From: Erythrobacter sp.
Lineage (GTDB): Bacteria > Pseudomonadota > Alphaproteobacteria > Sphingomonadales > Sphingomonadaceae
Assembly: GCF_036351135.1 (NCBI RefSeq)
Contig: NZ_JAZBON010000022.1
Coordinates: 7,351 to 71,350, forward strand
Direction: 5' to 3'
Length of the DNA: 64,000 nt
A model generated the notes under the pieces. It worked only from the letters and a program-made list of their open reading frames with translations. It was not told the DNA's origin and made no database searches. Below, piece by piece: positions 6,650-59,420 of this stretch. Position 1 is the stretch's first letter. The number at the start of each line of letters is the position of its first letter. The translations under genes and the position numbers were made by a program.

Positions 6650-7834
6650 ATGGCAACCGCCCCGCAACTAGAGGACCAGATCCGCACCATCGACCCGGAT
6701 GAGGAGCGCGCCTTCATGGACGCGATCGACCGATGGCTCGAACGCGAGGTCATTCCGGTCATCCAGCACCATGACCATGGCGATATCTGGCCGGAGAAAC
6801 TGGTCGAGCAGATGGCCGAGATGGGCCTGTTCGGCGCCACGATCGGTCAGGAATATGGCGGGCTCGGGCTGCCTGCGACGACTTACGCCAAGATAGTGAT
6901 GCGCATCTCCAGCTACTGGATGGCGATCACCGGCATCTTCAATTCGCATCTCATCATGGCGGCCGCCGTCGAGCGCTTCGGGACACCGCAACAAAAGGCG
7001 AAGTGGCTGCCCAAATTCGCAACGGGCGAGATCCGTGGAGGCCTAGCGCTAACCGAACCCAATGCCGGGACGGACCTTCAAGCGATCCGCACCGTCGCGA
7101 AGCGCGATGGCGACGATTATGTGCTCAACGGCACGAAGACCTGGATTTCGAACGCACTGAACGGTCAGTGCTTCGCGCTGCTAGCCAAGACCGATCCGAC
7201 CGCCGAACCACGCTACAAGGGGATGAGCCTGTTCATAGCCGACAAGCGCGATGGACTTACGACCGGCAAGAAGTTCGACAAGCTAGGCTACAAATCGATC
7301 GACAGCGCCGAACTGGTCATGGAGGATTACCGCATACCCGCCGACCAGCTTATCGGCGGCGAGGAAGGGCAGGGCTTCTTCCAAGCGACTGGCGGTCTCG
7401 AACTGGGCCGCATCAACGTCGCGGCGCGCGGGGTCGGGCTTTCGGAAGGCTCGCTCAGGCTGGCAACTGAATACGCGCAGCAACGCGAGACGATGGGCAA
7501 GCCTATCGCACAGCATCAGGCGATCCAGCTGAAGCTCGGCGAAATGGTGACGCGGGCCCGTGCTGCGCGGCTGCTGACGCTCGATGCGTCCGAAGCCTAT
7601 GACCGGGGCGAGCGCTGCGACAAGGAAGCGGGCGTTGCGAAATATTTCGCGTCGGAAGCGGCGGTGGAGAACAGCCAGGAGGCGATGCGCATCTTCGGTG
7701 GCTATTCCTATTCCAAGGAATACGACATCGAGCGTTTCTACCGCGACAGCATGCTGATGTGCATCGGAGAGGGGACCAACGAAATGCAGCGGATTATCAT
7801 CGCCAAACAGCACCTAAAAGAAAACGCGATCTAA
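6650..7834 (+). CDS. Acyl-CoA dehydrogenase
   Basis: 394 aa. ACAD motifs: GGLALTEPNAGTDLQAI, GTKTWISNA, and FGGYSYSKEYDIERFYRDSMLMCIGEGTNEMQR. Confidence 0.9.
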   Translation: MATAPQLEDQIRTIDPDEERAFMDAIDRWLEREVIPVIQHHDHGDIWPEKLVEQMAEMGLFGATIGQEYGGLGLPATTYAKIVMRISSYWMAITGIFNSHLIMAAAVERFGTPQQKAKWLPKFATGEIRGGLALTEPNAGTDLQAIRTVAKRDGDDYVLNGTKTWISNALNGQCFALLAKTDPTAEPRYKGMSLFIADKRDGLTTGKKFDKLGYKSIDSAELVMEDYRIPADQLIGGEEGQGFFQATGGLELGRINVAARGVGLSEGSLRLATEYAQQRETMGKPIAQHQAIQLKLGEMVTRARAARLLTLDASEAYDRGERCDKEAGVAKYFASEAAVENSQEAMRIFGGYSYSKEYDIERFYRDSMLMCIGEGTNEMQRIIIAKQHLKENAI

Positions 7835-26270: not shown

Positions 26271-28061
26271 ATGTTTGCCGGCGTAGCGTCGACGCTCGGC
26301 ATTGCGGCAGGCGCGCTTGTTCCTGCGGCAGCGGCTCGCGCTCAGGATCAGGTTCCGCCACAACTTACCCCGCCGCCGCGCACTCAGCTGACCCCGCCCG
26401 AACAACGGCGCGACGAACGCCCCACCACGCTGACGATCGACGGCGATCTCGAGCGTACGCCCTGCGTGCTCGACCGGGCGGAATATGCCAATATTACGCT
26501 GACCTTAAGCGGGGTCGATTTCGCCGGGCTCGAACGCGTGCCGGGCCTTTCGCTGGACGAGGCGTATGACGGGTATCTCGGGCGCGAACTGCCGCTTGCC
26601 GTCATGTGCGACATTCGCGCGCAGGCAAACGCCATTCTGCGCTCTCAAGGCTATCTGGCGACGGTCGAGATACCGGAACAGAACCTGAGCGACGGCGTAG
26701 CGGATTTTCGCGTCGTTTTCGGCCGTCTTGCGGCGCTGCGCGTGCGCGGAGATGCCGGGCCTTCCGAGGCGCTGGTCGCCTCCTATCTGGAAAAACTGAC
26801 CGAGGCCGACGTCTTCAACACGCAGGATGCCGAACGCTACCTGCTGCTCGCCGACGATCTGCCCGGAACCGACGTGCGCCTTTCTCTGCGCCCGGCGGCG
26901 GACGGCGAGCCGGGTGATCTGCTGGGCGAAATCGCGGTGGTGCGCAGGCGCGGCCAGGTCGATTTCAACATTCAGAATTTCGGTTCGGAAACGCTCGGAC
27001 CCTTCGGCGGATTGTTGCGCGGTGAGCTGTTCGACCTCACCGGCCTGGGCGATCGCACCACGCTCGCAGTTTTCAGCACAGTCGAGTTTTCCGAACAGCA
27101 GACTTACCAGCTTGGCCACGATTTCGCGGTCGGCAGCGAGGGGCTACGCCTGGGCGGACAGGTGACCTATAGCGAGACCGACCCCGACCTCGATCTCGAT
27201 GGCTTCGACCTTAAGTCCGAGACGGTGCTCGCAACCGTGTTCGCATCCTACCCGCTCGAGCGTTCGCGCCGCACATCGACAGTTCTGAGCGGCGGGTTCG
27301 ATCTGGTCGATCAGAACGTCGAGTTGAACGACTTCACGCTTTCGCGCGACCGGGTGCGCACGCTGTACGCGCGGATCGACACCAACTGGACCGATTTTGC
27401 GAGCATTCGCAATATCGGCGGTTACAACGCTTTCGAGCCGCGCTGGCGCGCGCGTTTGGCGACCGAGTTGCGTCAGGGGATCGACGTGTTCTCCGCAAGC
27501 GAGGATTGTCGCGCAGATCCACTTGCCTGCACCGCGGATGGCGCCGCTCCGCCAAGCCGGATCGAGGGCGATCCGACGCCGCTGCTCGCGCGGTTCAGCG
27601 CCGGTTTCGAATATCGACCGACGCCGCTCTTTACCGTCGCGCTCGATGCGAGCGCGCAGATCGCCGCCGATCCGCTGCCGGCCTTCGAAGAATATGCAGG
27701 CGGCAGTTTCTCGATCGGCCGCGGTTACGATCCCGGTTCGGCGCTGGGCGACGATGGCGTCGGCGCCGCCTTCGAGCTGCGTTACGGCTCGCTCGCGCCC
27801 GCGGCGGTGGATGCCGTCGCGGTTCAACCTTACGCCTTCACCGATGTCGTCGTGACCTGGAATCAGGATCCCAGCCGTGTTGCCGCCAATCCCGACGAGC
27901 TTTGGTCCGTCGGTGGAGGAATGCGCGCGATCTGGGGCTCTAACCTCCAGGCCGACGCCTTCGTGGCGGTCCCGCTCGAAAGGCCGGACCTGGCCCTCGA
28001 GAAGCCCGACGTGCGCTTCATGTTCTCGATCACCGCTCGCCTCGTACCCTGGAGATATTGA
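26271..28061 (+). CDS. TpsB outer-membrane transporter (ShlB/FhaC/HecB family)
   Basis: The start at 26271 gives the signal peptide [25 protein letters not shown]. This is followed by a Pro-rich linker, a POTRA-like region ([16 protein letters not shown]...[32 protein letters not shown]) and then a beta-barrel ([25 protein letters not shown]...). C-terminal aromatic residues ...LVPWRY. Confidence 0.85.
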
Positions 28062-28062
28062 T

Positions 28063-31000
28063 ATGGGTCGCTCTAACACCAATCGCTCGAAATTCCTGAT
28101 CGGCTGCGGCTCCGCCGCGCTGGCGATGGGATTGCTGATTGCGTCCGAGCGGGCACAGGCACAGGCGTTCAACGCCAATGCCGAAAATGGCGGATTGGGC
28201 ACCTATCAGCGGGTGATCGTCGATGGGACCAGCGAGATCATCGAGATCGAGACCCCGACCGCGGTGATCGACTGGACGCCGTTGGAGGATGCGGGCGGCA
28301 ACGCTCTCGATTTCCTTCCGACCGGCGCCACCGCAACGTTCCAGAACAGCAGCGACATCAACCCCGGCTCGAATTTCGCGGTGCTCAACCGCATCATGCC
28401 GTCATCCAATGGCGACATAGTCGTGATGGACGGGACGGTCATTTCGCAGATCGTCGACAGCGCCGGGGAGTCGAGCGGTCCTGGCGGCACGGTGGCGTTC
28501 TATTCGCCCACCGGTCTCATCATCGGCGACAATGCCGTGTTCGATGTCGGCAACCTGATCCTGACGACGCTCGACGTTTCCAACGCCAGTTTTGAGGCGT
28601 TCACCCAGAGCGGCGGTCAGCTGCAACTGGCGCGCGACAGCGATTTCCCTGGTGCTAACATCCGGCTCGATTTCGGCGCGCAAATCACCGCCACTGCCGA
28701 GAACTCCTACCTCGCGGTCACGGCTGCCGATATCCGGGTTTTCGGAACGACCGACGTCAACGGCAGTCAGGCGTTCGTCGCTGGCGACGAGATCAACCTG
28801 TCCTTTTCCAACGGACTGTTCGACATCCAAGTCGTCACCGGCACGGAAGCGACCAATGCTATCAGTCTGTCGGGCGACGTTGGCGGTCCGTCGAGCACGG
28901 GCGCGGGCGACAATCACATCATCTACGCCGTAGCGCGCGCCGCGGCCGATCCGATTTCGCTATTGTTTGGCGGCAATCTCGGCTTCGAACCGGCAGCCAG
29001 CGCCGGCATCGTCAACGGCGAGATCATCCTGTCGGCCAACTTCGACGTGGACGGAAGAACAGTTGCAGGAGCGTCGACCACGGAGGGTATCGACGCGGTG
29101 TTCGACAACCGGTTGGCGACCACCGATACGAACGGCGAGATTGCTATCGGCTCGCTGATCGCGACCAGTTCGTTGACCGCTGTTGCCAATGATCAAGTGT
29201 TCATCGAAGCGATCGAGAGCACGATTGATGTGACGGGCGACTTGATCTTGCACGGCACCACTTTCGCGGTCGCTTCCGCTTCTGACGGTGGCGACCTTGC
29301 CATCTCTGGAGACGTGCTGGTTTCCTCGCTCGACCTAGGCGAAGTGTCGGGCGGTTTTGACGGGATCGGCGAAGCCGCCGCGACCGGCGGTACTGCGGTC
29401 CTGAGCGGCAGTTTCGGCGGGATCGTCACGATCGACGGCGACGTTCGCGTGACGGCGGAAGCGATCGCGGGTCTCGATACCGAAAGCCAGGCAACCGGAT
29501 CGGCCACGGGCGGCAACGCCTCAATAAATGCGGGCGAAGGCGGCGAAGTGACCATCGACGGCTTTGCCGAGGTGCTGGCTTCGGCTGAGGCCTCTTCGTT
29601 TGCCGAAACGGTGCTGGAAGGCAACGAGTTTCGCGGTGGTGCGGCGCGAGTGAATATTGAATTCGACGGGGACGTGACCGTCGATGGTAATCTCACCGTG
29701 GCTGCGGATGCCTTCGGTGCGGATGGCGACGACTTCAACCCTTCGACCGGATCGCCCGCTTTCGGTGGCACCGCATTTGTCACGATGGATAGCGCGCCTG
29801 ATTCTCTCAATGTCGGGGGCGATGTTCTAGTGGCCGCTGATGCCATTGCCGGAAGCTCGAACGAGGCAGATCAGGGCGCGTTAGCAGATGCGGGCAACGC
29901 GCAGATATTCACTCGCCGCAACGACACCATCGATATCACCGGCAATGTCAGTCTGTCCGCGAGGGCCGAGGGCGGTTCTAATGCGAACGGTTTGGGCGGC
30001 GATGCCCTGGGCGGGATCGCCGGCATGTTAATTAATGAGGGTGGCAATGCGACCATCGGCGGCGACTTCGCGGCCGACGGATCGGCCAGGGCCGGCGATG
30101 GTGGAGCCGGGGGCGGCGACGCGTTCGCCGGGATTGCCGGAGCGCGGGTTACGATCGGTTCGATCGACATTGCCGGTTCGGGCAATGCCAATGCGAGCGG
30201 CGCTGGCGGAAATGCCGGTTTGGGTACCGATGGCGGGCGCGGCGAGGGCGGCAATGCTTTTTTCCAGGCCGATGGAACGGCGATGGAGACCGCATCGCTC
30301 GCGATCGGCAGCGACGCCATCCTCAACGCCGATGGCATTGGCGGCGCCGGCGGCTTCGGCAGCGGCGCGGGCGGTGACGGGGTGGGCGGCCAGTTCGACA
30401 CGCCCAACCAGGCGGATGTCGAAACCACGCCCAATAGCGGCGCCTACCTGCTAGCCGGCGGCGACAACGGTTCGATAAGCGTTGGCGGCGCAACCTCTTT
30501 AAGCGCCATCGGCTTCGGCGGCGCCGGCGGGGGATCGATATCCTTCGACACCGGCGGTGCCGGCGGGTCGGGCACAGGTGGGGCGGCACAGGCGGGGCTT
30601 GCCTTCCTCGATGGCGACGGTTCGGTGGGTGCCGGCACGGCGTCATTCGGAAACGTTAATGTCGATTCGCAAGGCGTTGGGGGGATCGGTGGCGATGGGG
30701 AAGAAGGCGACGGCGTCGGCGGCGATGGGACTGGCGGTTTGGCCATCTTCTCTGGCACCGCCGGCACAATAACCGCCGCCGACGTTACTTTGTTCGGCAC
30801 TGCCGTGGGCGGCGACGGCGGTACGGGCGGAACTGCCGATGGCGGCGGCGCGGGCATTCTCGGTTCGGCGCAGGGCTCGGTCACGATCGACAGTCTTTCA
30901 GCGCAGGCGATCGCGCGCGGCGGCAACGCTAGCGATGGCGGCGCTGATGCAAATGGCGGCGTTGCTTTCGGCGGGGAAGCGGTTCTCGATGGGAGCGAGA

Positions 31001-34000
31001 TCGATATCGTCATTCTCGGCGATGCGAGTTTGCTCACGGACACGTTTGGCGGCTCGGCCATAAGTGGGGACGGCGGTGATGCGGTCGGCGGCCAATCCTC
31101 CACTATTATCCAGGACCGCGAGGCAGCGTTCGGTTCGATCGACATCGGGGGCGATGTATTTCTTCAAACTTCGGGTTTCGGCGGCTCGACCGTCAACGGC
31201 CTCACCGGCGGTTCGGGTTTTGGCGGACGGGGGCGTGTCCTTGTCGACAACAGTACCTTGTTTGCGGATCGGATATTCATGTCTGCTCGGGGAACGGGCG
31301 GTACCGGAGCACAAAGTGGCGGCGCTGGGAATGCTGGCGAACTGATAGTCAATGTGGCGCTCGGCACTGTCGATGTAACGGCACTTTCGATGAGCGCTAT
31401 CGGTACTGGCGGCGATGCTTCCGAAGCGGGCGGAACTGGCGGCGTCGGCCGTGGAGGTCTTGCACAAGTTTTCGTCGGGGGATCTGAAACGGAAAGTGCC
31501 AGCCTTCTCGTCGATACTGACCTGCTCCTCCGAGCAGGCGGCTCGGGCGGCAACGGCGGACCGGGCGGCGCGGGCGGCGATGGTTTTGGCGGTCGACCAG
31601 ATGTCGAAGAAGAGGGCGGCGCGTTCATCCTTGTCGGCCGCGACAATGCTTCGCTCATTGTAGGCGGGGATATCAGCGCCAACTTCGGGGGCTTCGGGGG
31701 CGCGGGAGGCGATGGCCTCGCCTCGGGCGGGAGTGGCGGCGATGGCGGTAACGCTACGGGTGGCGAGGGCCTGCTCTCGATCCAAGCCCTAGGGTTCGGC
31801 GGAGCTTCGATCGACAACGGTTCGATAAGCGCAGCAAACATATTCATCTTCGATAATCCCATCGGCGGCGATGGCGGGGCGGCCGGGAGAAGCACTGATG
31901 TTCAGGGCAATGGCGGTAATGCGGCCTCGGGTTCGGCTATGATAAGTCTCGATGGCGGATCGCTCACCGCGACCGGGCGCATCACCGCCCAAACGAACCC
32001 TGACGGTGGCGATGGCGAGGTGGGTGGATCGGCGATAGCGGGCGACGCGAGCTTCTCCGCCGTCAATGCCGATGTTCAGAGTGACACGCTCGAGATACTA
32101 GCCTTTGCCTTCGCGCGTTTCGGAACCGTTGCTGTCGGAGATACCGATGGGGGTTCGGCCAGTCTGTTCGTGGATGGCGGCAACATCGATGTGAATTCTG
32201 TTTTCTTGAATGCGAATGCTGACTCAGGTGCAGATCTCTCGACTGCTGCTGGAGGGATCGCCGATGCGGGTCGTGCGAATTTCGATATTTTCGGCGATGC
32301 AATCGCTGATATCGGCACCGCTTTCATTTTGGCTAACGGCTTTTCTTCTGACGGGGGAAGCGCCTCGGGCGGGGTGGTGAATGTCAATATCGGTGATGTC
32401 GAATTCACGGGCGCGCCTCAAGTAAACGTCGGCACCCTGGTTGTGAGCGCCGAAGCGACCGGTGGCTTTGACAGCGGCCCGGCAAACAGCGTCGGCCGTT
32501 TCACAATCGATATCGACGACGGCGAACTCGCCGTTACCAATTTCACTGGTACAGCGCTCGGTAGCGACGATTTCGGTGAGCGTGGTTCCTCGAATATCTC
32601 GGCGACCGGCGGCGATTTCCTCGTCAGCGGGACTTTCGACGTCGATGTTCGCAACAGTTTCCAGATCGAAACCGCCAACGGCAACATCATCGGCGGTCCT
32701 TCGCTGTCAGCACCCACCGCGCAGATCACGATCGATTCAGGTAGAACGATCGTCATAGACGGCGATAACGATGCGGCGATCGGCTTCGGCGGGGCGTCGC
32801 TCTCGCTTACTTCCGAGGATATCGCGATCAACTTTGGCGCGCGTATCGGCGCGCCGGTCATGAATTTCGCTTCGATCGCGAACGATGGCCTTCCCACCAT
32901 CCTCGGCGGCGATCCTTCTCTCGTCGAAGGCGAATATGCGCTGACACAGGACGAGATCGCACGGCTCGAGGTCGGTCGGTTCAACTTCTTCGCGCCGACG
33001 ATTACCGAAGCAGGCGCCGACGAGGCCGACCTTCTCATTCGCGATGCGACGATCGTGGGATCGGGCGACGATGGTGCGTTCAGCGTCAACATCTTCGGTT
33101 CGGGCGGTATCGCCCGGGTCGAAGGGCAGGTCGACTACATCGACGCTCTGAGCACAGACAGCCTGTCTTTCTCGAATTTCGAGCGAATCGAAGTGGTAAC
33201 GCCGGGACGCGTTACGATCACCGACAGCGATATTCTGCCATCCGGTTCGCTTACCCTTGAGGCGGACAATGTTTGGGTCGCCGATGCGAGCTTGATCGCA
33301 CAGCTTCGGGCCGATCCTGATTTTGCCGGACGGAACGAGGCTCTCGCCACGGCTGGCGGGGGCGGTCCCGGTTCTGTCGTCGCAGATGAGGTTACGATAC
33401 GGATCGCAGATCAACTTCTTGTAGCCAATGAGGGCGAAGTCGGAGAAACTCGCGGAATTCTTGTCGGATCCGGCGGCTTGTCGATCTCCGGCCCCGAAGA
33501 CAGCTTTTCCCCCTCGACGTTGGATGTCTTCGCCTATGGCGCGCGGCTCGATGGGTCGGGTGAGTTCGTCGATGGCGAAACGTTCTTCAACGAAGTTGAA
33601 TTCTTCGGCGGCGGGTCCGAGCCGGCCAGCTATACGGACGAGTCTTCGTTCAACGATTGCCTCATCAGTTCAAGCGATTGCGGCACCATAATCAACCCAA
33701 CACCCACGCCAACGCCAACGCCAACGCCAACGCCAACGCCAACGCCAACGCCGACGCCCACACCGGCGCCGACGCCTACGCCTGCGCCCACTCCGACACC
33801 TACGCCTGCGCCCACTCCAACGCCGACGCCAACGCCGACGCCGACGCCGACGCCTACGCCTACGCCTACGCCCACACCGACACCGACACCGACGCCTACG
33901 CCGACACCTACACCAACGCCCACACCGACCCCGACGCCTACACCGACACCGACACCGACGCCTACGCCTACGCCCACGCCCACTCCGACGCCAACACCGA

Positions 34001-34350
34001 CGCCTACGCCTACACCGACGCCGACGCCGACGCCGGCACCGCCTCCGATCTCGGGGCCACCGCCACCACCGCCGCCGCCCGAGCTGCCGCCGGAAGTGCA
34101 GGTTGTGTTCGAGCAGATTACCAATGAAGAGGTCGTCGAAGCCGCTGTTTCGTCGGCGGTTCCGGTTCCGATCAGCGGGGAGGAGAGCAACGAGGAATTC
34201 GGCCTCGACTTCCCTGCTTTCGTCGAAAGCGATGAGATCGACGAGGAAACGGATGTCGGCGATGCCGTCGCCTCGGGCGGCGATTCCTCTCTCTACCGAC
34301 CGCAGACCGGCACCGTCGAAGTCGGAGAGGAGGCATCCGATGACCAGTGA
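28063..34350 (+). CDS. TpsA-type giant exoprotein (filamentous-haemagglutinin-type TPS domain, Gly-rich beta-helix-like repeats, Thr-Pro linker, acidic tail)
   Basis: The track ORF begins at 27877 inside tpsB. The ATG at 28063, 1 nt after the tpsB stop, gives [36 protein letters not shown]. The TPS-domain pattern is [16 protein letters not shown]...ATFQNSS...[24 protein letters not shown]...[28 protein letters not shown]. 2095 aa in total. Confidence 0.85.
33697..34047 (+). repeat. Coding (Thr/Ala-Pro)n dipeptide repeat, about 57 units, followed by a poly-Pro stretch (to 34095)
   Basis: Reading frame CCN-ACN/GCN repeated from 33697 (cca aca ccc acg cca acg ...) to 34047. The codons are a mixture of cca/ccg/cct/ccc and acg/aca/act/acc. 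The longest perfect hexamer run is (ccaacg)x6 near 33709-33744. Confidence 0.95.
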
Positions 34351-53146: not shown

Positions 53147-54154
53147 TCACGCCAGGTCCGTCTGGTCCGCCGCCTGTTCGGCGGTGAGCGGGCGGGCTAG
53201 CAGCCGATCGACCACTTTGCGAGGGGGCGCCCCTTCGAGAATGGCGTTGACCGCGGCGGTGATCGGCATGGCGATGTCGCCCTGATCGGCGAGCCGGGCG
53301 AGAACCGGCGCGGTATGCGCGCCTTCGGCGACGGTGGTGCGATCGGCCATCAGTTCGGCGGCGCTGCGCCCTTCGCCAAGCGCCTTGCCGAGCGAGAAAT
53401 TGCGGCTGCTGGTCGAAGAGCAGGTGAGCACCAGATCGCCGAGGCCGCACAGGCCCGCCAGCGTCTCCGCCTGTGCGCCCAACGCTTCGCCGAAGCGCTG
53501 CATTTCGGCATAGCCGCGCGCGATTAGCGCGGCGCGCGCATTCTGGCCGAGCGCCAACCCGTCGACCACGCCGCAGGCGATGGCGAGGACGTTCTTGATC
53601 GCGCCGCCGATTTCCGCGCCGGTGACGTCGTCCGAATAATAGGGCCGGAAGGTTCGCCGCGCGATGGCGGGGGCGAGCCGCTCCCATTGCGCAGCGCCGC
53701 CTTCGCAGGCGAGCGTAACGGCGGTCGGCAGGCCGCGTGCGACTTCATGCGCGAATGTGGGGCCGGAGAGCACCGCGATGGCGCTGCCTGGCGAGGCCTC
53801 GCGCGCGACATCGTTCATGAGCCGTCCGGTCTCCGCCTCGATGCCCTTGGAGCACAGCACGAGATCCCGCGGCGACTTGGGAAGCCTCGAGAGCACCTCG
53901 CCGAGCAATTGTGCCGGGGTGACGGCAAGGACAATGTCGATATCGACGAGGTCGGCAAGATCGGTGGTCGCGCGGATCGTATCGGCAAGGGCCGCGTCGG
54001 GCAGGTAGGGGGGGTTGCGGCGCTCGGCATTGATCGCCTCGGCAACGTCGGCTTCATAGGCCCAGATGGTCACCTCACGCCCGTCGCTGGCAAGCATCTG
54101 CGCGAGCGCGGTGCCCCACGCCCCTGCGCCGATGACGCCGACGCGCTGGCTCAT
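53147..54154 (-). CDS. gpsA: NAD(P)H-dependent glycerol-3-phosphate dehydrogenase
   Basis: The start at 54154 (ATGA overlap with the tsaD stop) gives [22 protein letters not shown]. Also NPPYLP, the GLGDLVLTC context, and [11 protein letters not shown]. Confidence 0.9.
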
Positions 54155-55323
54155 GCCTTCACCCCTGCACCGCGCACCTTTTCGGCTTCCGGATCGAGCG
54201 GCCAGCGTGGGCGGGCTTTGAGATCGAGCGGATCGCCAACGAAAACGGGATCCAGCGTGAGGCGCTCGCACCCCGCCCAGGCGATCATCGCCGCATTGTC
54301 GGTGCACAGCGCCAGCGGCGGCGCGCCGAACCGCATCGCATGGCCTGCCGCAAGCCCCTCGAGCGCGGCGCGCACCGCCTGGTTCGCGGCGACACCGCCT
54401 GCAACGACGAGGGCGGGGAATGGGCCGTGAGCTGCCAGCGCATGTTCGAGCCGGTCGATAAGACAGTCGATGGCAGCCTGCTGAAAGGAGGCGGCGATAT
54501 CGGCGTCCGTATAGCCAAGCGCCGTTCGTGCTGAGTTTATCGAAGCACCCGTTCGAGCTTGCCGAGAACCCATGCTTGCTCTCGGCTTCGCTCGAGCTGA
54601 CCCTTCGACAAGCTCAGGGCGAACGGGATCGGACTGGTTTTCCTTTGCCCGCAACACCGCGCTTTTCAGCCCGGCGAAGGAGAAATGCGGCTCCTTCGAT
54701 CCCTTCAAGGGCCGCGGTAGGTCCACCGCGCCCGCATCGCCCTCGTGCGCCAGCTTCTCCACCGCCGGCCCGCCGGGATAGCCCAGCCCCAGAATTTTAG
54801 CCGTCTTGTCAAAAGCCTCGCCCAGCGCATCGTCGATTGTCGTAGCAAGGCGGCGATATTCGCCCACCCCTTCGACGGCCAGGATCTGGCAGTGTCCACC
54901 CGAGACGAGCAGCAGCAGGTAGGGGAATGAAAGGTCGGCGTCCGCAAGACGCGGCGAGAGCGCGTGGCCTTCCAAGTGGTTGACCGCGATCAGTGGCTTG
55001 TCCGCCGCCATCGCCAGCGCCTTGCCGCTGATCAGCCCGACCATCACGCCGCCAATGAGGCCCGGCCCTGCGGTCGCAGCGATTGCGTCCATGTCGGCGA
55101 GCGCGAGGCCTGCATCCTCGAGCACCGCCTCGATCATCGGCGCCAGCCGTTCGGCATGGGCGCGCGCGGCGATTTCCGGGACGACGCCGCCATAGGGCGC
55201 GTGCTGCGCTTCCTGGCTCGCGATCCGCTGGGCCAGCACCCGCCGGTCCGACGCGACCACCGCCACCGCGGTTTCGTCGCAGCTGGATTCGATCCCCAGA
55301 ACAAGGCGGGTGCGTCCCTCCAT
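54151..55323 (-). CDS. tsaD: tRNA N6-adenosine threonylcarbamoyltransferase TsaD, carrying an in-frame 35-codon repeat insertion
   Basis: [28 protein letters not shown], the HLEGH motif and [11 protein letters not shown]. At 390 aa it is about 40 aa longer than the typical protein; see the repeat at 54522-54626. Confidence 0.9.
54522..54626. mobile_element. 105-bp palindromic MITE/REP-like element ('VRPELVEG' family) inserted in frame in tsaD
   Basis: Terminal inverted repeats ccgttcgtgctgag / ctcagggcgaacgg. Its reverse complement aligns with 58058-58163 at roughly 85 percent identity by my manual alignment. Read in the tsaD frame it encodes [34 protein letters not shown]. Confidence 0.75.
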
Positions 55324-57082: not shown

Positions 57083-58042
57083 ATGCATGGACGTGTGATG
57101 GCATCGAAATATGGCAGCCGCCGCAAACCCGCCTCGATGCGGCGGTTCGTGGTCGCGGCGCTGGTCTCCTTCCTCGCCGGCGGCGCGCTGGTGGGCTACG
57201 TGGTCTATTACAACCTCACCGACGACGAGCCGGCGCGTTTTGCCGGCGCGGATGTCGGGGCGGGGGCGAGCGGCGCTGTCGCCGAGTCGAGCGAACCGGC
57301 CGTGGGTCCGACCGAGACGATCAACGCCTCGCCAAGCCCGCTCGCCGAAGCGGTCGCCGCGCTCGAAGGCGGCGACACCGAAGGCGCTGCCGAAGCGGTG
57401 ACCCGCGTGGTCGACCAGCAGGGCGGTATCGACCAACGGCTCGCCGCGGCGGAACAGCGCCTCGCGCGGCTCGACCTTCAGGCGCAGGCGGCGGCGGGCA
57501 ATGCAGCGCGCGCCGAGGGCCTGCTCATCGCCTTCGCCACCCGGCGGGCAGTCGAGCGGGGCGCGGAACTGGGCTATCTCGCCGATCAGCTGCGCCTGCG
57601 CTTCGCCGATCAGTGGCCTAATGCGGTCAACACCATCATCACCTTCGCGCGCGATCCGATCCGGCTCGACAATCTCACCGCACGGCTGGACGGCCTCGGC
57701 CCGCAGCTGGTGGAGCGCAGCGAGAACCTGAACTGGGACCGGATCACGCGCGAGCTCGGCCAGCTCTTCGTCATCCGCCGCGAGAGCACCCCTTCGCCGC
57801 AGCCCGCCAGGCGCCTCGAACGCGCGCGCATCGCGCTTGAACAGGGGCGCTACCAGAACGCGATCGACGAAATCCGGAACATGCCCGGAGCGGATCAGGC
57901 GCAAAGCTGGATCCGCGATGCCGAGCGCTATCGCGACGCGATGCAGGCGCTGGAAGTGATCGAAACCGCCGCCGTGCTCGACCAGAGTGGGCTGCGTGAC
58001 GGCGCAGGCAATGCGGTGCGCCAGCCGAGCCCGGTGGAGTAG
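57083..58042 (+). CDS. Membrane-anchored coiled-coil protein, candidate alphaproteobacterial Mic60 (mitofilin-domain) homologue
   Basis: 319 aa. N-terminal TM segment FVVAALVSFLAGGALVGYVVYY, an Ala/Glu/Arg-rich helical middle, and the C-terminal LERARIALEQGRYQNAIDEIRNMPGADQAQSWIRDAERYRDAMQALEVIE. It lies immediately downstream of hemC-hemD. Confidence 0.5.
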   Translation: MHGRVMASKYGSRRKPASMRRFVVAALVSFLAGGALVGYVVYYNLTDDEPARFAGADVGAGASGAVAESSEPAVGPTETINASPSPLAEAVAALEGGDTEGAAEAVTRVVDQQGGIDQRLAAAEQRLARLDLQAQAAAGNAARAEGLLIAFATRRAVERGAELGYLADQLRLRFADQWPNAVNTIITFARDPIRLDNLTARLDGLGPQLVERSENLNWDRITRELGQLFVIRRESTPSPQPARRLERARIALEQGRYQNAIDEIRNMPGADQAQSWIRDAERYRDAMQALEVIETAAVLDQSGLRDGAGNAVRQPSPVE

Positions 58043-58057: not shown

Positions 58058-58163
58058 CCGTTCGCCCTGAGCTTGTCGAAGGGCAAGCTCGAGCGAAGCC
58101 GAGAGCCTGTCTGCGTTCTTGGCAAGCTCGAACGGGTGCCTCGACTTCGCTCAACACGAACGG
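58058..58163. repeat. Second copy (106 bp, opposite orientation) of the 'VRPELVEG'-type palindromic element
   Basis: ccgttcgccctgagcttgtcgaaggg...ctcaacacgaacgg. It lies in the 139-bp gap between convergent genes (stops at 58042 and 58182). Confidence 0.75.
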
Positions 58164-58181: not shown

Positions 58182-59420
58182 TCAAGCCCGCAAAAGCTCG
58201 GGCAAATCCCCGCTGACCCCGCGCGCTTCATCCATGAAAAAGCTCTTGAGCACAGGCGTGCGCTGCACCGCGGCCATGCCGAGGCGGCGGACGGCGCTCG
58301 CGGCGGTGCCGGGGACGCCGAACAGGCGGGTGAGGCCGTCGGTGGCGAGCGCGACCATGAAAGCATCGAGCCCGCGCCAGTTCTCGTAGCGTTTCAGCAG
58401 CTGCGCATCGCCCGGATCGAGCCCGATGCGCGCGCCTTCGGCCAGCACCTGCACCAGCGCGCCGACATCGCGCAGGCCGAGATTGAGGCCCTGTCCTGCG
58501 ATCGGATGGATTCCGTGCGCCGCATCGCCGACCAGCGCGAGCCGCTCGTCGGTGATCTTGGTGGTGTGGTGAAATCCCAGCGGCCAGCTCGATCGCGCGC
58601 CGACGCTGGTCACCTCGCCCAGGATGTCGCCCATGCGTTTCTGCACCTCGGCCGTGAAGGCCCGGTCGCCGAGCTTGGTAACGGCGCGTCCATCCTCTTC
58701 GGACACCGTCCACACCAGAGAAGACCGATGCGTCCCGTCCGCGTCATCGCGCATTGGCAGCAGCGCGAAGGGGCCGGCGGGGTAGAAGATTTCCCAGGCG
58801 ACGTTGTCGTGGGGCCGCGAATGGGTAAGCCCGGCAATGACCGCGCAGTGACGATAATCCCACTGCGCAATGGTGATGCCCGCTTCCTCGCGCGTGGGCG
58901 AGCCGCGCCCCTCGGCGCCGACCATCAGCCGTCCCTTGAGCTTGCGCCCGTCCGCCAGCACCGCGGCGACGCCGAATTCGCTGCGCTGACGCTCGGCGAT
59001 CTCGGCCTTGCTGGCCCAGTTAATGAGCGGCTCGTCCGCCGCCGCCTCGAACAGGGCAAGGCGCAATCGGCGATTGGGAAACATCCGCCCCAGCGTCCCC
59101 TCATGCGCTTCGGGCGTGAAGTCGAGCCGGCCGGGCTTGTTCTGATCGGTCACCGCAATGCTGGCGATGTCGCAGGCGAAGGGCTCGAGGCTGTCGGCGA
59201 TACCGATATTGCGAAACAGGTGCCAGCTTGCCGTCGAGATTGCAGTCGCGCGGTCGTCGAAGCCTTCCGCGGTCAGATCGGCAGGATCGGCGCGGTCGAC
59301 GACATGGCTCGACAATCCTTGTCGCGCGGCCGCGAGCGCCAGCGTCATGCCGACCAGCCCCCCGCCCAGGATTAGCAGATCGCGCGTTTCGTCATCGGGT
59401 TTGGTGTCTGGCTTGCTCAT
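58182..59420 (-). CDS. UbiH/UbiF/Coq6-family FAD-dependent ubiquinone-biosynthesis hydroxylase
   Basis: 412 aa. LLILGGGLVGMTLALAAARQG (GxGxxG), ALVGDAAHGIHPIAGQGLNLGLRD. Confidence 0.85.
   Translation of the reverse strand: MSKPDTKPDDETRDLLILGGGLVGMTLALAAARQGLSSHVVDRADPADLTAEGFDDRATAISTASWHLFRNIGIADSLEPFACDIASIAVTDQNKPGRLDFTPEAHEGTLGRMFPNRRLRLALFEAAADEPLINWASKAEIAERQRSEFGVAAVLADGRKLKGRLMVGAEGRGSPTREEAGITIAQWDYRHCAVIAGLTHSRPHDNVAWEIFYPAGPFALLPMRDDADGTHRSSLVWTVSEEDGRAVTKLGDRAFTAEVQKRMGDILGEVTSVGARSSWPLGFHHTTKITDERLALVGDAAHGIHPIAGQGLNLGLRDVGALVQVLAEGARIGLDPGDAQLLKRYENWRGLDAFMVALATDGLTRLFGVPGTAASAVRRLGMAAVQRTPVLKSFFMDEARGVSGDLPELLRA

Follow-up and report, generated by a model that had tools for sequence, protein, structure and literature searches.

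How can a gene as conserved as tsaD carry a palindromic repeat of 105 nt in its reading frame and still encode an intact protein? The question is raised by a 64,000-nt stretch of DNA from Erythrobacter sp. (RefSeq assembly GCF_036351135.1, contig NZ_JAZBON010000022.1, positions 7,351 to 71,350 of the forward strand; hereafter "the window"), in which a nested-palindrome repeat (54522..54626, minus strand) lies within the essential gene for the tRNA-modifying enzyme TsaD (54151..55323, minus strand). Our analysis indicates that this repeat is probably a selfish element, resembling repetitive extragenic palindromic (REP) sequences and their paired form, REP doublets forming hairpins (REPINs), which sits in frame in tsaD and is translated as a tolerated loop. 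The core of the original prediction, made from the letters of the window, was that a dispersed palindromic repeat has entered a TsaD loop without destroying the gene; consistent with this, orthologues with and without the insert both exist, and the arms of the insert match intergenic repeats.

We identified the host protein as TsaD, the tRNA t6A37 threonylcarbamoyltransferase, from its match to the NCBIfam equivalog TIGR03723 (404.9 bits, against a cutoff of 296.1), which is split in two around the insert, and from its similarity to TsaD structures in the PDB (HMMER, E = 5e-86). The open reading frame (ORF), its translation and the TIGR03723 match agree on an intact protein of 390 aa that contains the inserted peptide as first quoted. 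In HMMER alignments to the E. coli and Salmonella proteins (4ydu and 3zet), residues 8–230 of the window protein correspond to E. coli residues 3–226, and residues 271/272–377 to E. coli residues 230/231–332. This leaves ~36–40 extra residues in a loop for which E. coli TsaD has four, and the break in the alignment agrees with the earlier proposal that spacing becomes comparable to that of E. coli TsaD once the element is removed. The length of this loop differs among bacterial TsaD proteins. In the alignment of the TsaD family, the FSFAGLK, HxxxH, DD and CTDN Asp motifs are invariant, as are the metal-binding residues H116, H120 and D342 and the segment F214–K220; the window protein has the ASKHA fold, metal ligands and D-stem motif of TsaD, as judged from an AlphaFold2 model and the alignment. 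An identical TsaD protein is encoded on contigs of two different metagenome samples, indicating that the insert in the window is no assembly chimera, and similar inserts are carried by isolate genomes or metagenome-assembled genomes (MAGs) of relatives.

The first base of the element falls on codon position 2, and the element encodes 34 residues flanked by (P) and (A), adding ~35 residues to TsaD. Its 5′ arm (module A, CCGTTCGCCCTGAGCTTGTCGAAGGG; 54601..54626, minus strand) translates as VRPELVEG, and its 3′ arm (GCTTCGATAAACTCAGCACGAACGG; 54522..54547, minus strand), which is imperfectly complementary to the 5′ arm and has the family's usual 2-nt mismatch close to the end, translates as ASINSART. 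A further, inner palindrome is formed by the module B pair, GCTCGAGCGAAGCCGAGAGC ... GGCAAGCTCGAACGGGTGC (54545..54597, minus strand). Three of the six reading frames of this copy are open, the used frame among them. A second copy of 106 nt (58058..58163, plus strand) lies between two convergent genes, starting 16 nt past the stop codon of the ORF at 57083–58042 (+) and ending 19 nt before the stop codon of the ORF at 58182–59420 (-). Aligned with the tsaD copy in the minus sense and the intergenic copy in the plus sense, the two are identical at 92 of 106 columns (86.8%) with a single 1-nt gap, close to the ~85% first estimated by hand, and none of 100 shuffles gave a match as good. The 26-nt left arm is identical in both, with its exact duplicate at 58058–58083; two further stretches inside the element, of 20 and 19 nt, are identical as well. 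The copies are 3.4 kb apart. The module B pair is present in both window copies and in none of the sequenced orthologous tsaD inserts. The flanks of the intergenic copy are unrelated to those of the tsaD insert, and a profile of 160 arms found only these two copies within the window.

The tsaD copy is predicted to form a single long imperfect hairpin (minimum free energy, MFE, -59.7 kcal/mol; z = -7.7; 0 of 200 shuffles equally stable), and the intergenic copy a hairpin of -54.3 kcal/mol (z = -4.2). The element had been described as bounded by 14-bp terminal inverted repeats. This is correct for the termini, which are complementary at 12 of 14 positions, and too narrow in extent: complementarity continues to 20 of 26 positions, and the element as a whole, a nested palindrome, folds into one hairpin. 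No T-tract follows either window copy, and a role for these copies as intrinsic terminators was rejected on that ground.

We compared the window protein with an orthologue set consisting of the 120 best TsaD clusters, all from Erythrobacteraceae (named members are Erythrobacter, Porphyrobacter and Qipengyuania) and 74–80% identical overall. In 46 of the 120 clusters, this loop holds an element of the same kind, read in the frame used in the window protein; the other 74 have a short loop, typically RAHESGE-HKPADIAASF. The alignment of orthologues that had been suggested as a check thus reveals both states, together with an empty site in locus L005 (see below), and the refuting outcome, that all relatives share a loop unlike intergenic repeats, did not hold. 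With a family member at this loop in so many clusters, the insert is not an event private to this genome. All inserts have in common the arm peptides VR[PA]E[LP]VE[GA] and [AP]STSS[AG]RT, which are the translated arms, and differ in the sequence and length of their centres (17–57 residues). Some contain nested extra pieces (GSEADPQGQRP) or duplicated arm fragments; in P0089, an internal deletion has left the two insert ends alone (SVGESGRTE), which suggests palindrome-mediated internal deletion. We also observed the module GCTCGAGCGAAGCCGAGAGC, in another frame, nested in some TsaD inserts (GSEADP...).

At the DNA level, four orthologous loci with conserved hemC-tsaD-gpsA synteny agree in the codon phase of the element and, to within one codon, in its position, and have centres that are unrelated to that of the window copy. 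The flanks of every insert-bearing allele read RAK(E/D)xQ ... Y(S/T)DAD, and those of insert-free neighbours read RAHESGEH. Locus L005 (protein P0049) has insert-type flanks and no element (AAC CAA GAT GGC TAC = NQDGY; KENQ-DG-YSD), and represents either an empty site or a precise loss. When the tsaD copies are compared among the window, L003 and L004, the arms differ at 0–2 of 26 positions (92–100% identity), whereas the tsaD coding DNA around them is 75–85% identical. The arms are thus far closer to one another than the flanking coding DNA is, indicating that a process other than selection on TsaD maintains or renews them. In the tsaD insert of P0003 (L126, 2301–2393), we observed that the termini have changed on both sides, CCGCTC...GAGCGG as against CCGTTC...GAACGG, with the foot of the hairpin still paired; these compensating termini in an older copy would fit either hairpin-templated correction or selection that favours pairing.

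To place the insert in the TsaD fold, we ran AlphaFold2 on a 90-sequence alignment (mean predicted local distance difference test score, pLDDT, 80.6). The model matches 4ydu and 3zet with a template modelling (TM) score of 0.91, normalised to the target. The helices bounding the insert (residues 217–228 and 273–299) are modelled with confidence, and residues 234–267 have a pLDDT below 50 and no secondary structure; the model predicts that the insert is disordered and that the TsaD core is intact. In a cryo-EM structure of T. maritima TsaB2D with tRNA (2026), helix alpha7 (Tm 210–223) runs along the tRNA D-stem, and the tRNA contacts of TsaD are made by the first turn of alpha7 and the motif F207SFSGLK213 (PMC13276492). 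The window counterpart of this motif, F214SFAGLK220, is intact. By sequence correspondence, helix 217–228 would be the counterpart of the D-stem-binding alpha7, and on this mapping the insert would start ~5 residues past the helix's C-terminal end. The insert-bearing loop lies within the helical insertion that also grips TsaE; it is predicted to be exposed, yet lies near functional surfaces for tRNA and TsaE. The earlier description of a surface loop therefore fits as far as predicted exposure and disorder are concerned, but the position is not an arbitrary one, since the loop follows alpha7 in the TsaE-gripping subdomain.

We built a neighbour-joining tree on 339 TsaD columns, with the loop removed. 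The tree contains one large clade of ~38 insert-bearing clusters, with insert-free P0120 nested inside it. The window protein, P0003, P0004, P0044, P0084 and P0002/P0079 also carry the insert, and their closest backbone relatives are insert-free: the ten best relatives of the window protein (P0001; 86.7–87.6% identity) all lack it, and P0003 is 93.5–95.3% identical to five insert-free proteins. The distribution of the insert is discordant with the TsaD tree. When P0003 (L126) was compared with the insert-free relative nearest to it (L127), from which it differs by ~17% in DNA across the whole region, no recombination tract was resolved, because background DNA identity is only ~83%. The insert-type flanks were not brought by the element, since the intergenic copy has unrelated flanks. 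The simplest reading is that the element entered a KENQ-type allele once, after which the allele was inherited vertically and its loop was also transferred between lineages through homologous recombination. The insert-bearing loop allele would have persisted through speciation in the Erythrobacteraceae, and was either moved by homologous recombination or gained repeatedly. Conversion of a resident copy by a paralogous copy, with the identical arms as homology, would explain why the centre of the window insert matches that of the intergenic copy.

Searching one genome for each species for the 22-nt arm core, GTTCGYSCTGAGCYTGTCGAAG, we found exact copies at no fewer than 120 loci, which span at least 10 phyla or classes; by our estimate, fewer than one occurrence is expected by chance in the scanned collection. 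Among the matches listed, the proteobacterial hosts are Sphingomonadales, many Betaproteobacteria, Methylococcales and other Gammaproteobacteria, and the remaining hosts are Chloroflexota/Dehalococcoidia, a cyanobacterium, Nitrospirota, Thermodesulfobacteriota, Myxococcota, Campylobacterota and Dadabacteria. With this range, the repeat family is not lineage-specific. Copies of the family are mostly intergenic and adjoin gene ends, and the usual form in Sphingomonadales is an arm, a variable centre and an inverted arm. For 80 full elements, the median length is 81 nt, the median MFE -43 kcal/mol and the median z -6.2, with 70 of the 80 forming a single hairpin. Arm positions 8–9 are systematically non-complementary, with perfect pairing there in only 5 of the 80. 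Element lengths, mostly from intergenic copies, show no preference for multiples of three (23/23/34). In Chloroflexota and Methylococcales we found a ~33-nt unit, CCGTTCG-NNC-TGAGCYTGTCGAA-GNN-TGAACGG, which forms a hairpin of its own around a conserved 13-nt loop, TGAGCYTGTCGAA. The arm motif is also present in 108 stretches of viral or prophage contigs in IMG/VR, which may be a route by which it spreads between lineages. Rfam at the gathering threshold gave no match in the window or in 18 element-bearing loci of several phyla, a permissive Rfam scan around the intergenic copy returned noise only (E up to 10), and literature searches with arm peptides or arm DNA strings found no relevant paper.

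Two side observations concern the composition and annotation of the repeats. The 20-nt centre GCTCGAGCGAAGCCGAGAGC (window positions 54578–54597 and 58087–58106) also forms the core of another short hairpin repeat, (A)TGGGGGTCCCCC(T)-core-(TT)GGGGGAG, found on very GC-rich soil metagenome contigs; a metagenome scan for the window-specific centre returned mostly this repeat, and not more copies of the window subfamily. The repeats seem to be mosaics of shared modules. In addition, intergenic copies are often annotated as "hypothetical proteins" of 37–72 aa (e.g. in Sphingopyxis sp. YF1 and Sphingobium fuliginis; P0121–P0150), and others appear in annotations as extensions at the C-terminus of genuine genes (a fragment of an RNase P protein and a methyltransferase-like C-terminus). 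Such repeat-derived annotations are likely artefacts.

We also scanned the arm-core loci, irrespective of frame, for ORFs that read through the element with at least 60 codons on each side, and found four with homology on both sides. These encode the alanyl-tRNA synthetase AlaRS in an Ottowia MAG (L103, element at 6840–6902; TIGR00344, 748 bits, with the match spanning the insert), RlmM in a Gallionellaceae MAG (L012, 2231–2308; 421 bits in two stretches), a molybdopterin oxidoreductase in a Lysobacterales MAG (L095, 1567–1644; matches on both sides of the insert) and, as a less secure case, a halogenase-like flavoprotein in Sphingomonas sp. Root241 (L070, 3901–3987). An HMMER search of 1.84 billion representatives gave 589 matches, mostly to short ORFs, with YbeY (P0202, 134 bits) as the sole clean long host; long hosts are few among representatives because clustering at 50% identity hides insert-bearing variants. 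A peptide-profile search of a 5.8-billion-protein set returned short spurious ORFs only, of up to 74 aa. Two candidate hosts were rejected: the flavoprotein P0224, for its frameshifted gene model, and the EAL-domain protein P0169, in which the element lies in a C-terminal read-through.

All in-frame hosts use the frame VRxExVE...STSSxRT. The other open frame of typical copies (PFALSLSKG...LRQAQGER) was seen only in spurious-looking ORFs, and the third frame has a TGA in the arm. The used frame has a grand average of hydropathy (GRAVY) of -0.7 to -1.0, as compared with -0.4 to -0.5 for the other open frame. That five of five hosts use one of two open frames (p ~0.03) is suggestive of a filter for the more hydrophilic peptide. 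Since the family has no bias towards lengths that are multiples of three, the in-frame copies are best seen as survivors of selection, and not as products of a special mechanism.

We looked for traces of mobility at the elements and around them. Among the 80 full elements, no target-site duplication was found at any offset, with matches of k = 2–7 within chance, and their flanks have no strong consensus and no evident target motif; nor is there a target-site duplication at the tsaD and intergenic junctions in the window. No small ORF is bracketed by inverted copies in the arm-core loci (8 kb each), and a related insertion sequence sharing the termini of the element was seen neither in the window nor in these loci, in a search that was not exhaustive. 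The window element lacks GTAG/CTAC and CGTC/GACG tags. It has the characteristics of a REP/REPIN, with two inverted units and a spacer in one hairpin, many mostly intergenic copies and no target-site duplication. Of the features of a MITE (miniature inverted-repeat transposable element), terminal inverted repeats are present and the target-site duplication is absent. The REP half of the initial "MITE/REP-like" label is hence apt, and the MITE half was dropped, since there is no duplication and no insertion sequence was seen in the loci covered. Two further assignments were rejected: membership in the CGTC-type REPs, for which the stem, tag and peptides are all different, and a likeness of the arm to Tn3-family inverted repeats, for which the orientation is inside-out. 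The element may be mobilised through a single-stranded DNA hairpin or by HUH-type activity.

These results suggest how the gene could have stayed intact. The 105 nt are a copy of a dispersed non-coding hairpin repeat with inverted arms, a variable centre and no gene of its own, and this copy, with a length that is a multiple of three, lies in the DNA for the alpha7–alpha8 loop of TsaD. In the used frame, the arms contain no stop codon and encode hydrophilic peptides in which Pro, Gly, Ser, Glu and Arg are abundant (VRPELVEG ... STSSxRT). With this length and these stop-free arms, tsaD stays open and the insert would be translated, giving ~35 disordered residues that loop out from the tip of the helical subdomain and leave the catalytic core and FSFAGLK untouched. 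Because the loop is predicted to be disordered and the core unaffected, we read the insert as a tolerated passenger, presumably neutral or slightly deleterious, and not as a new functional domain. Its centre turns over by insertions and deletions, by nested modules and possibly by conversion from other genomic copies, the insert can decay by internal deletion, and it has presumably passed through a history of recombination or conversion.

Several points weigh against this reading of the insert as a mobile but tolerated passenger. The shared KENQ-type flanks and codon phase fit a single origin better than free transposition, and no mobilising gene recurs in an all-against-all clustering of 3157 ORFs from the arm-core loci. 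Translation of the insert is something we infer from the open reading frame. A neutral, passive loop should have decayed faster than the arms did; some force preserves the arms, whether they have been replaced recently, undergo gene conversion or hairpin-templated repair, or are under selection as DNA, RNA or peptide. An effect of the insert on TsaD function, good or bad, is plausible, because the loop directly follows the D-stem helix and lies in the TsaE-gripping subdomain. The insert might be exapted, with its peptide or mRNA hairpin functional in TsaD and kept by selection; it could, for example, make an extra contact to the elbow or D-arm of the tRNA, modulate how TsaE binds, or control how tsaD is translated or how stable its mRNA is. 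Its retention across ~38 TsaD clusters at 75–90% identity is what exaptation would lead one to expect, as are arm peptides conserved around a variable centre, arm DNA more conserved than the flanking coding DNA, a position directly after the alpha7 that contacts the D-stem and within the helical insertion that grips TsaE, and a net charge of +5 on the window peptide. However, this charge is not conserved (the common type has ~-4), 74 of the 120 close-relative clusters work without an insert, the centre is variable in length and sequence and has been reduced to a remnant in P0089, and AlphaFold2 predicts disorder. Moreover, intergenic copies across phyla show the same arm conservation, indicating that it reflects constraints on the repeat family and not on TsaD, and the same peptide frame is found in unrelated proteins. 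We therefore regard exaptation as quite improbable.

The tsaD loop could instead be a preferred target that has been hit repeatedly and independently, with the window copy a separate, recent insertion of a local subfamily. Such a history would account for the polyphyletic distribution of the insert and for a window centre that matches the intergenic copy 3.4 kb away (20 + 19 nt exact) and no sequenced orthologous insert. By contrast, it does not account for the fact that all insert-bearing alleles have the element within one codon of a common position, in one phase and between the same KENQ...Y(S/T)DAD flanks: the nearest insert-free relatives have HESGEH flanks, which independent hits would not have replaced, as they would not carry flanks along, and the 80 elements show no target motif, duplication or strong flank consensus. 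Recurrent insertion is therefore a doubtful, though real, possibility. That the loop is an ancestral extension resembling the repeat by chance, or a metagenome assembly chimera, is next to inconceivable: TsaD loop length does vary among bacteria, with four residues in E. coli, but a chance resemblance or chimera is contradicted by the exact 26-nt arm, the 86.8% overall identity matched by 0 of 100 shuffles, the same arms at hundreds of loci, the identical protein in two samples and the isolate genomes with similar inserts. A wider scenario can also be drawn, in which the elements form a cross-phylum palindrome superfamily without a known transposase; its loop modules, TGAGCYTGTCGAA and GAGCGAAGCCGA, would be read by widespread machinery, conversion or hairpin-templated repair would keep copies near consensus, those within essential genes included, and the tsaD allele would spread by recombination in a homing-like manner without an endonuclease, perhaps partly exapted. 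Partial exaptation is considered here because the insert adjoins the helix that reads the tRNA D-stem. As a whole, we hold this scenario to be unlikely, and favour a selfish palindrome tolerated in the TsaD loop.

Elsewhere in the window, we observed a 2157-aa ORF (27877–34350, plus strand) that is rich in Gly, Asp and Ala and has a long Thr-Pro dipeptide run near its C-terminus. A repeat within this ORF (33661–34137) is the largest direct-repeat family of the window, and the product is probably a large secreted or surface protein.

The tolerated palindrome in tsaD has implications beyond this locus. Free-living Alphaproteobacteria and Betaproteobacteria, and not just reduced, intracellular lineages like Rickettsia, admit selfish palindromes into core enzymes linked to translation (TsaD, AlaRS, RlmM and YbeY), and the TsaD loop offers a natural experiment in how much disordered sequence the helical subdomain tolerates beside the contact surface for tRNA and TsaE. 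The element is also a pointer to a very widespread repeat family, with 22-nt arms conserved across phyla, and the practical effect of such repeats is to create spurious "hypothetical proteins" and to lengthen the annotated products of real genes. What is new here is a repeat family for which we found no description; that palindromic repeats can be translated inside conserved genes is known already. The kind of event is thus less novel than originally thought, given the precedents in Rickettsia and Erythrobacter, while the finding is more general than that first account, extending to many species, several essential genes and a cross-phylum family.

By definition, MITEs carry terminal inverted repeats, duplicate their target site and have a parent insertion sequence. 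Like them, the present element is a small, non-autonomous repeat able to add peptide segments to proteins; unlike them, it has no duplication and no parent element that we could see. Bacterial MITEs inside genes include the Coxiella QMITEs (PMC5896051) and small mobile sequences of enterobacteria (reviewed in PMC10969869). The resemblance to REPINs and bacterial interspersed mosaic elements (BIMEs) is closer in structure, with two inverted units and a spacer in a hairpin of ~80–100 nt, a mostly intergenic location near gene ends, no target-site duplication, arms that are systematically non-identical ("heterodimers"), nested modules and a mosaic composition. REPINs are mobilised by REP-associated tyrosine transposases (RAYTs), and BIMEs are enterobacterial; the present element has no GTAG tag, and no RAYT or other associated gene was found in at least 120 loci. 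REPIN populations are usually lineage-specific and vertically inherited, in contrast to the arm motif described here, which is shared across phyla.

The Rickettsia palindromic elements (RPEs; RPE-1 and relatives), reportedly described by Ogata et al. in 2000 and in later work, are typified by palindromic repeats that lie in frame within essential genes. The present element resembles RPEs in being a palindrome of ~100 nt, found both between genes and in frame in conserved or essential genes, in a consistent frame and at surface positions, without inactivation of the host protein; as in RPEs, a palindromic repeat of ~100–150 nt occurs both intergenically and in frame within ORFs. It differs in its sequence family and in its hosts, which are free-living Sphingomonadales and many other phyla, in an arm motif that is conserved across phyla, and in the occupation of one loop of one gene in many species, discordantly with the gene tree. 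Its arm peptides also appear to differ from those of RPE-1, and we take the element to be an analogue of RPEs, not a member. The precedent of Rickettsia for in-frame insertion of palindromes, on which the original prediction drew, stands (RPEs are mentioned in PMC3733652), and a further precedent comes from Erythrobacter itself. Di Nocera et al. (2013), in a catalogue of REPs tagged with GTAG or CGTC, listed intragenic REP dimers (CGTC-1) of 20–30 aa from Erythrobacter litoralis (RsmE, TruB and DnaE2) and Sphingopyxis alaskensis, with tRNA synthetases also among the host genes, and noted that CGTC REPs have no dedicated transposase; neither tsaD nor the present peptide is in their table of intragenic REPs (PMC3733652). 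CGTC-1 REPs have stems of 8–9 bp, a CGTC tag, a CCA tail and the peptides VIPAKAGI/IPAFAGMT (PMC3733652), whereas the present element has 26-nt arms, no CGTC or GTAG tag and different peptides. No dedicated transposase is known for either, and both are found in the same bacterial group and represent the same phenomenon.

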